In this document: piece after piece, positions 657 through 1,739 of the stretch
How the letters are laid out: each line of letters starts with the position of its first letter
How positions within the stretch are numbered: the stretch's first letter is position 1
Translations under genes and position numbers: made by a program
Source: Candidatus Rifleibacterium sp.
GTDB taxonomy: Bacteria > Muiribacteriota > Ozemobacteria > Ozemobacterales > Ozemobacteraceae
Reading direction: 5' to 3'
Assembly: GCA_035352635.1 (NCBI GenBank)
Contig: DAOPYA010000055.1
Location: 1-28,512 of the forward strand
Length of the DNA stretch: 28,512 nt
The notes under the pieces: model-generated
Database searches by the model: none
What the model saw: the letters and a program-made list of their open reading frames with translations, nothing else
Told to the model about the DNA's origin: nothing

Positions 657-1739
657 TTAAGGCTTTTTCTTCAGTTCGCAGATCGGGCACTTGTTCGCGT
701 CTGGCATGCAGGACGGGCAGATGTGATCGTGAAAAATACACTGGGAAAAGGTGTTAACCACTGTGGCGAGGTCGAAGGCTTTTTTGCAAATCGGGCATTG
801 AAAGGTCTTATTGCTTTTTCCGATGTTTTCGCGGCGATGAGACCAGCGCCAGATCGTATTCAAGGCATGTTCTGCTTTTTCCTGAAGAAGGCCGGAGGCG
901 GCCATGCATGGTTTGCATATCCTGTGTTCACGGTCTGATGATCTGCCGAAAATGCCGCCGGCACATGCAGAGCAGGTTGGTCGGCCGCACCATAAGCAGT
1001 GCCAGTAAGCATTTCCACGTTCCCCCTGTGCGACCTGATACGACCCGGAAAAGAAAGTTTTGTTGCAGATATGGCATGGCCCTCGCAGGCGCTGCGGATC
1101 AGCCCCATGTTTCAGCAGCATGTCTATCATCGTCGGGTTGTTTCTTTTATGCGCGGCCAGCAGTGGGCAATCGCCATCTATTCCCATGGCGTTCGGGTTT
1201 GCGCCGCCTTCGAGCAAGGCTCTGGCGAGTTTTACGTTTCCCCAATACACCGTCAGTGTGAGCGGTGTGGAAAAGTTTTCCTGTGACAGGTGTTCTGTCG
1301 AAACCCCATTTTTGATGAGAAAATCGACAAGATCAGGGTTTTTGCCCTGGATAGCCTTTCTAATCAGGTAACCTTCGCCTTCATAGGTGGTTTCGGCAAG
1401 CGTGGCTCCGTGTTTCAACAAGAGTTGCAGCCCCTCAAGATTACCGTTTTCGCAGCAGATGATGACGGCGGTGTGCCCCTTGCTGTTTCTTGCATCTGGC
1501 TTCACACCCTTTTCAAGGAGCAGGCGGATAAGATTGTTGTTATTGCCCTTCGCAGCGTAGATAAGTGAATCGCTGCCATTTTTCGCAACGCGAAAGATAT
1601 TGGCACCATTCTTGAAGATGCCCATCGCAACTTCTTCGTTTCCATGCTGCAATGCTTCGAAAAATTCAGAAACGCCCACACAATCAACCATTTCTCCATC
1701 AATCAGACGTTTAACTCCACATTTGAGCATTCTTATCAT
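657..1739 (-). CDS. ankyrin-repeat protein with C-terminal FYVE-like and RING-like (C3HC4-type) zinc-finger modules; eukaryote-like architecture
   Basis: 360 aa, ATG at 1739 preceded by GGAGAG plus a 6-nt spacer. The N-terminal ~200 aa carry about 5 ANK repeats (e.g. '...SLIYAAKGNNNNLIRLLLEKGVKPDARNSKGHTAVIICCENGNLEGLQLLLKHGA...', 'TPLTLTVYWGNVKLARALLEGGANPN...DCPLLAAHKRNNPTMIDMLLKHGADP'). The C-terminus has the module C-x2-C...YWHC-x2-C-x4-C-x2-C...H-x2-C-x2-C, which is FYVE/PHD-like. It is followed by C-x2-C-x15-C-x2-H-x3-C-x2-C-x6-C-x2-C, which is RING-like. GC is ~45-50%, below the window average. Confidence 0.75.
   Translation of the reverse strand: MIRMLKCGVKRLIDGEMVDCVGVSEFFEALQHGNEEVAMGIFKNGANIFRVAKNGSDSLIYAAKGNNNNLIRLLLEKGVKPDARNSKGHTAVIICCENGNLEGLQLLLKHGATLAETTYEGEGYLIRKAIQGKNPDLVDFLIKNGVSTEHLSQENFSTPLTLTVYWGNVKLARALLEGGANPNAMGIDGDCPLLAAHKRNNPTMIDMLLKHGADPQRLRGPCHICNKTFFSGSYQVAQGERGNAYWHCLWCGRPTCSACAGGIFGRSSDREHRICKPCMAASGLLQEKAEHALNTIWRWSHRRENIGKSNKTFQCPICKKAFDLATVVNTFSQCIFHDHICPSCMPDANKCPICELKKKP

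Follow-up and report, generated by a model that had tools for sequence, protein, structure and literature searches.

An ankyrin-repeat protein of Riflebacteria with a FYVE-type and a RING-spaced zinc module

The stretch of DNA analysed here (the window) comprises 28,512 nucleotides, positions 1 to 28,512 of contig DAOPYA010000055.1 from a metagenome-assembled genome (MAG) of Candidatus Rifleibacterium sp. (GCA_035352635.1). Near its start, at 657..1739 on the minus strand, lies a complete open reading frame (ORF) of 360 aa plus stop, whose product we call ANK-ZF because it joins ankyrin repeats to two cysteine-rich, putatively zinc-binding modules. The corresponding NCBI record (HNX76304.1, Candidatus Rifleibacterium sp.) is annotated merely as an "ankyrin repeat domain-containing protein", and four independent sources (ENA, JGI, an NCBI MAG and Logan) each have a contig that encodes an identical protein with its neighbours unchanged; the window also makes up the first 28.5 kb of CAZOMG010000017.1. 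An earlier reading of the same DNA, made without database searches (the sequence-only reading), had credited the gene with a good Shine-Dalgarno sequence, and a GGAG at 1748..1751 on the minus strand (1751-1748 in the direction of reading) indeed precedes the ATG by 8 nt. Two GC-rich hairpins bracket the gene: one with a 9 bp stem at 1801..1824, between the EamA gene and the ANK-ZF start codon, and one at 587..604, between the ANK-ZF stop codon and the convergent ORF 2..490. The former probably ends the upstream unit, which would leave ANK-ZF with a promoter of its own, and the presence of hairpins on both sides suggests that the gene is monocistronic and stands alone.

The ankyrin repeats are firmly present. 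They occupy residues ~21-218 (1086..1679, minus strand) and are supported by Pfam and PDB matches, by helix pairs predicted by AlphaFold2 (AF2) and by periodic sequence anchors. Pfam assigns Ank_2 (PF12796; E=4.9e-26, 91.6 bits against a gathering cutoff of 27.3), Ank (PF00023; E=2e-20, 72.1 bits against 21.1) and Ank_4 (E=3e-19), and the PDB sequences of ankyrin-1/2 match at up to E=5e-68. The sequence-only reading had put the number of repeats at about five; the AF2 helix pairs and the anchors, spaced with a period of 33-34 residues, give six. Ahead of the repeats, residues 1-13 (MIRMLKCGVKRLI; 1701..1739, minus strand) form a basic amphipathic segment that orthologues conserve as MIRLIKSGIKRLL (MIR(L/M)(I/L)K.G(I/V)KRL(I/L)). 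Its hydrophobic moment is 0.71-0.78, compared with a 95th percentile of 0.56 for the ANK-ZF protein, and its net charge is +4. This 13-mer may bind the membrane as a helix or serve in targeting; no signal peptide was found in the protein. Behind the repeats, a tail of 145 aa carries 15 of the 20 cysteines.

An exhaustive phmmer search with the C-terminal 149 aa against 1.84 billion representative proteins gave five matches, three of which are real: P0001 (72% identity, 359 aa), P0002 (35%, 376 aa) and P0003 (28%, 519 aa), the last being a fragment of the 677-aa P0024. We rejected P0004 and P0005 as spurious, since one is a low-complexity repeat protein and the other a C2H2 array. Word-index searches with the C-terminal 150 aa or with a four-sequence profile returned no matches, and missed even the query's own cluster. 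A full-length search found eight 90%-identity clusters at 62-97% identity, and a scan of 185,579 GTDB species representatives found nine loci in eight MAGs, one of which holds two paralogues. A metagenome scan added five loci and no new diversity; L019 and L022 appear to be duplicates of L012 and L015, with equal coordinates and identities. In every member, the zinc tail is fused to upstream ankyrin repeats. All taxonomically named relatives among the 1.84e9 representatives and 5.8e9 clusters belong to Riflebacteria/Ozemobacteraceae, the remainder being labelled "uncultured bacterium". No eukaryotic or viral protein was found at E<=1e-3 in the phmmer search of the 1.84e9 proteins or in the search of the viral BFVD, which gave nothing meaningful. 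The two paralogues, in MAG JAHISQ01, are L012 (6544-8328, minus strand) and L015 (2855-4672, plus strand), with 65% and 62% identity to the window protein; near each of them lie a ~600-aa ankyrin-only protein and TPR proteins, and repeat-protein families seem to have expanded in the Riflebacteria lineage.

Neighbouring genes can be compared along with ANK-ZF at locus L010, where the orthologue lies at 9371-10450 and its protein is 68% identical to that of the window, compared with 91% for the neighbours. Synonymous divergence (dS) between the two loci is 0.88 for ANK-ZF, 0.95 for a nearby MVP homologue and 0.79 for CorA, and this equality argues for orthology and vertical descent. The ratio of nonsynonymous to synonymous divergence (dN/dS) is 0.24 for ANK-ZF, 0.054 for MVP and 0.056 for CorA; against its orthologues generally, ANK-ZF gives 0.19-0.24 overall and 0.10-0.33 per zinc module. 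By these ratios the gene is evidently under purifying selection, each zinc module included. The GC content of the ORF is 0.50 and its GC at third codon positions (GC3) 0.56, within the ranges of the 22 other window genes (GC 0.46-0.58, GC3 0.50-0.75) and close to the 0.52 of the whole window, so that the lower GC noted in the sequence-only reading is a weak claim. On the GC and GC3 values and the equal dS, we reject the idea of a low-GC gene acquired by horizontal transfer. A recent eukaryotic origin is unsupported, given the same values and the confinement of named relatives to Riflebacteria. Neither of the outcomes that the sequence-only reading had named as speaking against it came about: the tail matched no common bacterial zinc ribbon, and its homologues are not widespread.

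The first zinc module covers residues 222-278 (906..1076, minus strand) and reads CxxC-x22-CxxCGxxxCxxC-x15-(K/R)ICxxC, a C4-C4 pattern of FYVE type with predicted ligands C222, C225, C248, C251, C256, C259, C275 and C278. All eight cysteines are invariant across ten relatives, down to 26% identity, as are the F-F-x-G after the first pair, the glycine of CxxCG and the I-C at the last pair. The spacing is that by which we defined FYVE domains (PF01363), namely eight cysteines as C-x2-C...C-x2-C-x4-C-x2-C...C-x2-C; the arrangement CxxCxxxF(F)S ... CxxCGxxxCxxC ... (K/R)ICxxC follows the FYVE layout, and all members have an RVC-type motif, (R/K)ICxxC, at the last pair. In 9/9 members FYVE moreover ranks first among Pfam families, with an alignment that spans positions 11-63 of the 67 in the profile. 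What the module lacks is the lipid-binding signature: we looked for the phosphatidylinositol 3-phosphate (PI3P) motifs R(R/K)HHCR and WxxD in family members and found neither. In place of R(R/K)HHCR the sequence is AYWHCLW, VDWHCSW, EDFNCSW or IAETCFI, a stretch without a basic cluster that is preceded by a low-confidence loop insertion of ~12 residues (231-243). Since the basic PI3P-binding pocket is missing, module 1 would most resemble the non-lipid-binding FYVE-type fingers of Rab effectors such as rabphilin and RIM, whose role is structural and in contacts between proteins. The sequence-only reading had arrived at much the same cysteine layout and at a FYVE-like finger; the layout and the Pfam ranking agree with it, whereas the Pfam threshold (below) and the absent R(R/K)HHCR and WxxD motifs do not. 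It had also given a gap of x19 where the sequence has x21 before H247-C248 (x22 from Cys to Cys), and had counted histidines as ligands; because neither H247 nor H272 is conserved in the relatives, we regard module 1 as a C4-C4 finger rather than a histidine-containing one.

A helical linker (residues 279-311; 807..905, minus strand) with the conserved sequence "GLL.EKAE..L.TIWRWAHRRENIGK" leads to the second module. In the AF2 model of the tail, built with a multiple sequence alignment of relatives, its helices are placed at model residues 66-72, 76-81 and 83-90 with predicted local confidence (pLDDT) of 82-91 and an overall predicted template-modelling score (pTM) of 0.71; single-sequence AF2 of the full protein gave the tail a pLDDT of 30-50. 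Module 2 (residues 312-360; 660..806, minus strand) is modelled with pLDDT 86-94 and sits at the extreme C-terminus. It reads CP[IVL]C-x15-C-x2-H-x3-C-x2-C-x6-CP[IL]C plus a tail of 4-6 residues, giving the C3HC4 ligands C315, C318, C334, H337, C341, C344, C351 and C354. The sequence-only reading had its pattern, C-x2-C-x15-C-x2-H-x3-C-x2-C-x6-C-x2-C, exactly right, and the RING expression C-x2-C-x(9-39)-C-x(1-3)-H-x(2-3)-C-x2-C-x(4-48)-C-x2-C is matched exactly at C315-C354. An H-x3-C-x2-C-x6-C-P-x-C at the extreme C-terminus is the arrangement of IAP/MDM2-type RINGs. At the linchpin position, where many RINGs have a basic residue, the window protein has Glu and most orthologues Lys.

Among the ten relatives, C315, C318, C341 and C344 of module 2 are invariant, and the other four ligands are kept in all but one. 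In P0003, H337 (ligand 4) is replaced by Cys, which would make a C4C4 finger. P0002 keeps ligands 1, 2, 5 and 6 and the histidine at 4, but Ser takes the place of ligand 3 and the protein stops short of ligands 7 and 8. It does so at a genuine stop codon, and in none of the alternative frames does a Cys pair follow. This is the pattern expected if ligands 1, 2, 5 and 6 form one site, as they would in a cross-brace, which would leave that site intact; sequential fingers would have both sites broken, and P0002 thus favours the cross-brace. Conservation of the ligands down to 26% identity and the dN/dS of 0.1-0.33 in the modules place the zinc-ligand pattern beyond chance.

The support that profile comparisons lend to module 2 as a RING is marginal. 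The best RING-family model is zf-C3HC4_3, which matches 7/8 members (best E=6.8e-3), and Prok-RING_4 (PF14447) also matches 7/8 weakly (best E=0.014, ~13 bits against a 27-bit cutoff). Against PDB sequences, the module 2 profile including its lead-in found RNF126 at E=1.4e-4 and RNF4, a fused double-RING chain, at E=1.3e-5, values inflated by the lead-in; after trimming of the C2H2-like lead-in the values were 1.4e-3 for RNF126, 0.1 for RCHY1 and 0.3 for RNF4. All sequence matches that run the full length of module 2 are to RINGs. For module 1, the family profile retrieved the FYVE domains of FGD5, EEA1, ZFYVE19, Hrs and RUFY1 at noise level (E=0.05-3). We put the chances of a RING-type cross-brace for module 2 at barely above even. 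What speaks for E3 ligase activity, which is possible, goes no further than the spacing and a handful of RING-like residues.

The account that we favour, and hold to be somewhat likelier right than wrong, is that the ANK-ZF gene stands alone, is specific to Riflebacteria and passed on vertically, and encodes a cytoplasmic adaptor whose zinc unit combines a FYVE-type with a RING-like finger. The six ankyrin repeats would supply a protein-binding groove, and the C-terminal ~145 residues would form a compact unit, probably held by four zinc ions, in the order FYVE-type C4-C4 finger, helical linker and C3HC4 finger with RING (IAP-like) spacing. Most likely, a target bound by the ankyrin repeats would be bridged to a second partner on the zinc unit, and the basic amphipathic N-terminus may place the protein at a membrane. 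The sequence-only reading had proposed an architecture of ankyrin, FYVE and RING domains, which was largely right: the ankyrin part is firm and the spacing of module 2 exact, while both zinc modules stay below threshold and the RING fold is unconfirmed.

Several observations weigh against this account. Module 1 scores 18.9-21.7 bits with FYVE, below the Pfam gathering threshold of 27.8, and is also under the threshold of FYVE_2; zf-C3HC4_3 gives module 2 14.2 bits against a threshold of 27. A fold search with module 2 recovered no bona fide RING. Its AF2 model has a beta-hairpin at the first knuckle and then a helix (324-330) before ligand 3, a beta-beta-alpha-like order that is non-canonical for a RING, and tandem C2H2 fingers, too, align with the module in HMMER. 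The C2H2 alignment arises because the distance from C1C2 to C5C6 mimics the 28-residue C2H2 repeat: the HMMER matches cover the first knuckle only or stem from this coincidence of period, and the classical C2H2 spacing C-x2-4-C-x12-H-x3-5-H does not occur in module 2, where C318 to H337 is x18. Finally, ANK-ZF, though constrained, evolves 4-5 times faster than its neighbours and often adjoins restriction-modification (R-M), toxin-antitoxin (TA) or DISARM-like genes, which would also fit a conflict-related role.

The surroundings of the gene vary from locus to locus. In the window, an MVP homologue at 3773..6298 on the plus strand (MVP_shoulder E=1.4e-29, Vault_3 E=6e-7; 841 aa as an ORF, 823 aa by gene callers) lies ~2 kb from ANK-ZF; it is as real as the sequence-only reading had supposed, and at 91% identity to its L010 orthologue and the dN/dS of 0.054 given above it is strongly constrained. 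Bacterial MVP homologues have already been described, apparently with none from Riflebacteria among them (bioRxiv 10.1101/872010). A functional pairing of this gene with ANK-ZF, hinted at in the sequence-only reading by its remark on two eukaryote-type proteins within 6 kb, finds no support on comparison. In the window the two are on opposite strands with CorA, SlyX and EamA between them, and MVP is within 10 kb of ANK-ZF in only two of seven species-level loci (the window and L010), being absent from that distance in L005, L012, L013, L016 and L017. With unrelated genes intervening and no conserved adjacency or operon, we reject, on synteny, co-location as a sign of a functional link. In L010, the MVP-CorA-SlyX block is followed by an MmeI-type R-M gene (5872-8790) inserted between SlyX and ANK-ZF. 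L005, L011 and L013 have a ParE/antitoxin pair upstream, and OTCase, AddAB-like helicases and an M42 peptidase downstream; in L005 there is, besides, a DISARM-like block (1-9800) made up of a DEAD/MZB helicase, an Eco57I-like methylase and a SNF2 helicase. Further large ankyrin, TPR or Sel1 proteins are near ANK-ZF in L012, L015 and L016. Variable genes seem to accumulate at this position, as at a hotspot.

The rest of the window encodes ordinary Gram-negative functions: besides CorA, SlyX and EamA, there are NlpC/P60, an MLE-family enzyme, Mo/W and ABC-2 transporters, HlyD and a Kef-type antiporter. The SlyX-family ORF, which at 2436-2690 (minus strand) has a TTG start and 84 aa, shares 53 nt with the 3' end of CorA (2638-3705, minus strand); gene callers make SlyX 65 aa long instead, with its start past the stop codon of CorA. 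The convergent ORF 2..490 (162-195 aa) has no match in Pfam, NCBIfam or PADLOC. Four independent assemblies (L001-L004) break within ~100 bp of one another just past this ORF, which suggests a repeat or strain-variable region just beyond the start of the window. An ORF of 291 aa at 13636-14511 (plus strand) has no NCBIfam match, two further ORFs in the 190-290 aa range are unannotated (19282-19953 and 20156-20722, both minus strand), and so are two overlapping ORFs on opposite strands at 10437-11190.

The strongest competitor to the favoured account concerns module 2 alone. This module might be no RING but a sequential C2-CH beta-beta-alpha finger (C315, C318, C334, H337) followed by a C4 knuckle pair (C341, C344, C351, C354), serving generic interaction or nucleic-acid binding, with its RING spacing coincidental. 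The AF2 topology and the C2H2 alignments fit this arrangement, but the latter are limited to the K-x-F-x-C-P-x-C-x-K-x-F knuckle or to mimicry of the 28-residue period, the C-x2-C-x12-H-x3-5-H spacing is not there, the C-terminal half is of IAP type with zf-C3HC4_3 the best model among RING families, and P0002 is better explained by a cross-brace; we consider it a doubtful, if serious, possibility. Another way to read the architecture, brought up by the sequence-only reading, is that ANK-ZF is an effector that mimics eukaryotic proteins and reaches the inside of a eukaryotic cell, for instance a protist, where the ankyrin repeats would select a host target, the RING would recruit a host E2 so that this target is ubiquitinated, and the FYVE-like finger would aid endomembrane targeting. 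We find this improbable. The named relatives come from one bacterial lineage, with no eukaryotic or viral sequence at the E-value cutoff given above, dS and GC are like those of the core genome, and the protein has no signal peptide; nor were secretion-system genes found in any locus examined (for the window, 28.5 kb of a MAG). Module 1 has no PI3P motif, Glu occupies the linchpin position in the window protein, and the RING fold is unconfirmed. The lineage itself is described as one of free-living anaerobic organotrophs of deep aquifers, digesters and sludge, with genomes of ~5.4 Mb (a 5.39-Mb MAG comes from a 2.8-km borehole; PMC7509429).

The neighbourhoods raise a different prospect, that ANK-ZF is a conflict or defence-island gene, with a part in defending against phages or in countering such defence; this would account for both its fast evolution (4-5 times the dN/dS of its neighbours) and the variable, defence-rich surroundings in which orthologues stand beside ParE/antitoxin pairs, the DISARM-like helicase/methylase block and the MmeI R-M gene. 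The PADLOC models PDC-M72A (E=7e-24) and "Ankyrin" also match the protein, but they cover only its ankyrin repeats (residues 26-143); the matches of PADLOC and NCBIfam are ankyrin-driven only, and neither the zinc tail nor ORF 2..490 has any. There is no defence gene that adjoins ANK-ZF consistently, the window neighbours being EamA, SlyX and CorA, and ANK-ZF is a stable single-copy orthologue across species, so that we rate this prospect as highly improbable. Equally hard to credit is a bolder reading, in which an endogenous FYVE-RING protein of a free-living candidate-phylum bacterium would work as a zinc-dependent E3-type ligase or a membrane-associated adaptor and might act on large assemblies such as the vault-like particle of the neighbouring MVP. 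Its pair of modules, elsewhere taken as a hallmark of the endomembrane and ubiquitin biology of eukaryotes, would then be an invention of the bacterial lineage or an ancient relative. Burroughs, Iyer and Aravind are said to have predicted, in 2011, prokaryotic ubiquitin-like systems with RING fingers that are typically linked by gene neighbourhood, and ANK-ZF could be the endogenous E3-like part of such a conjugation system whose E1, E2 and ubiquitin-like (Ubl) genes lie elsewhere in the genome. The RING spacing and the weak Prok-RING_4 matches fit this idea, and prokaryotic RINGs, along with other binuclear treble-clef fingers, are treated as an established class in the passages of PMC4506424 and PMC4678705 that cite work on them. 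At the loci examined, however, no E1, E2, Ubl or JAB gene is found within 10 kb in any, and the RING matches are far under threshold; of all these explanations, we give this one the slimmest chance.

Eukaryotes are regarded as the typical home of FYVE-type and RING fingers and of proteins that join them to ankyrin repeats; in bacteria these are usually taken as signs of host manipulation. As an orthologue of vertical descent and under constraint in an uncultured, free-living lineage, beyond which no relatives were found, ANK-ZF is a warning that a eukaryote-like architecture need not mean an effector role or horizontal transfer. It also offers a small and well-defined family whose double zinc module, unannotated in public records, is within reach of structure determination. 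Were the RING-like finger to work with an E2, or the FYVE-type finger to bind a ligand in the membrane, the family would be informative on the roots that binuclear treble-clef domains have in prokaryotes. Prokaryotic RINGs and bacterial MVPs are already known, however, and ANK-ZF is therefore a lineage-specific variant built of known kinds of domain. As it stands, we see it as a lineage-specific curiosity rather than a new system.

Among bacterial proteins, the obvious comparison is with the Legionella effectors AnkB (ankyrin plus F-box), LubX/GobX (U-box) and RavN, which come from a host-associated organism and are secreted by Dot/Icm (PMC5819833, PMC7542358). Unlike these ligases, ANK-ZF belongs to a free-living lineage and has no secretion context at the loci examined, and its E3-type module is RING-spaced and predicted to be zinc-dependent rather than an F-box or U-box. 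With the prokaryotic RING fingers (Pfam Prok-RING_1/2/4), module 2 shares a putative binuclear treble-clef-type finger in a bacterium, but it is fused to ankyrin repeats and a FYVE-type finger and has no E1/E2/Ubl neighbourhood. The closest kind to module 1 are the FYVE-type fingers of Rab effectors (rabphilin-3A, 1ZBD; RIM2, 2CJS; Slp4; melanophilin) and the FYVE domain of Hrs (1DVP). Compared with these, it is sub-threshold for Pfam FYVE and FYVE_2 and has the ~12-residue insertion at the site of the R(R/K)HHCR strand; unlike the Rab effector fingers, it is bacterial and lacks Rab-binding helices.

For the tail as a whole, the nearest parallel is RFFL/RNF34 (CARP2/CARP1), which have a FYVE-like finger without the PI3P motif and a C-terminal IAP-type RING, and no ankyrin repeats. 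ANK-ZF has the same order of modules, a non-canonical FYVE-like finger and then a RING-spaced finger at the extreme C-terminus, and the same C-x2-C-x6-C-P-x-C second half; it differs in its ankyrin repeats, in the lack of detectable sequence homology, and in that its RING fold is putative and its E3 activity no more than possible. Ankyrin repeats are combined with a C-terminal zf-C3HC4_3-type RING in MIB1/2 (Mind bomb) and plant XB3/XBAT, and with FYVE in ANKFY1/Rabankyrin-5. The likeness to these proteins, N-terminal ankyrin repeats followed by a zinc finger, is one of architecture only, with no sequence relationship beyond generic ankyrin similarity, and we know of no MIB, XBAT or ANKFY1 protein that combines ankyrin, FYVE and RING domains in the order of ANK-ZF.

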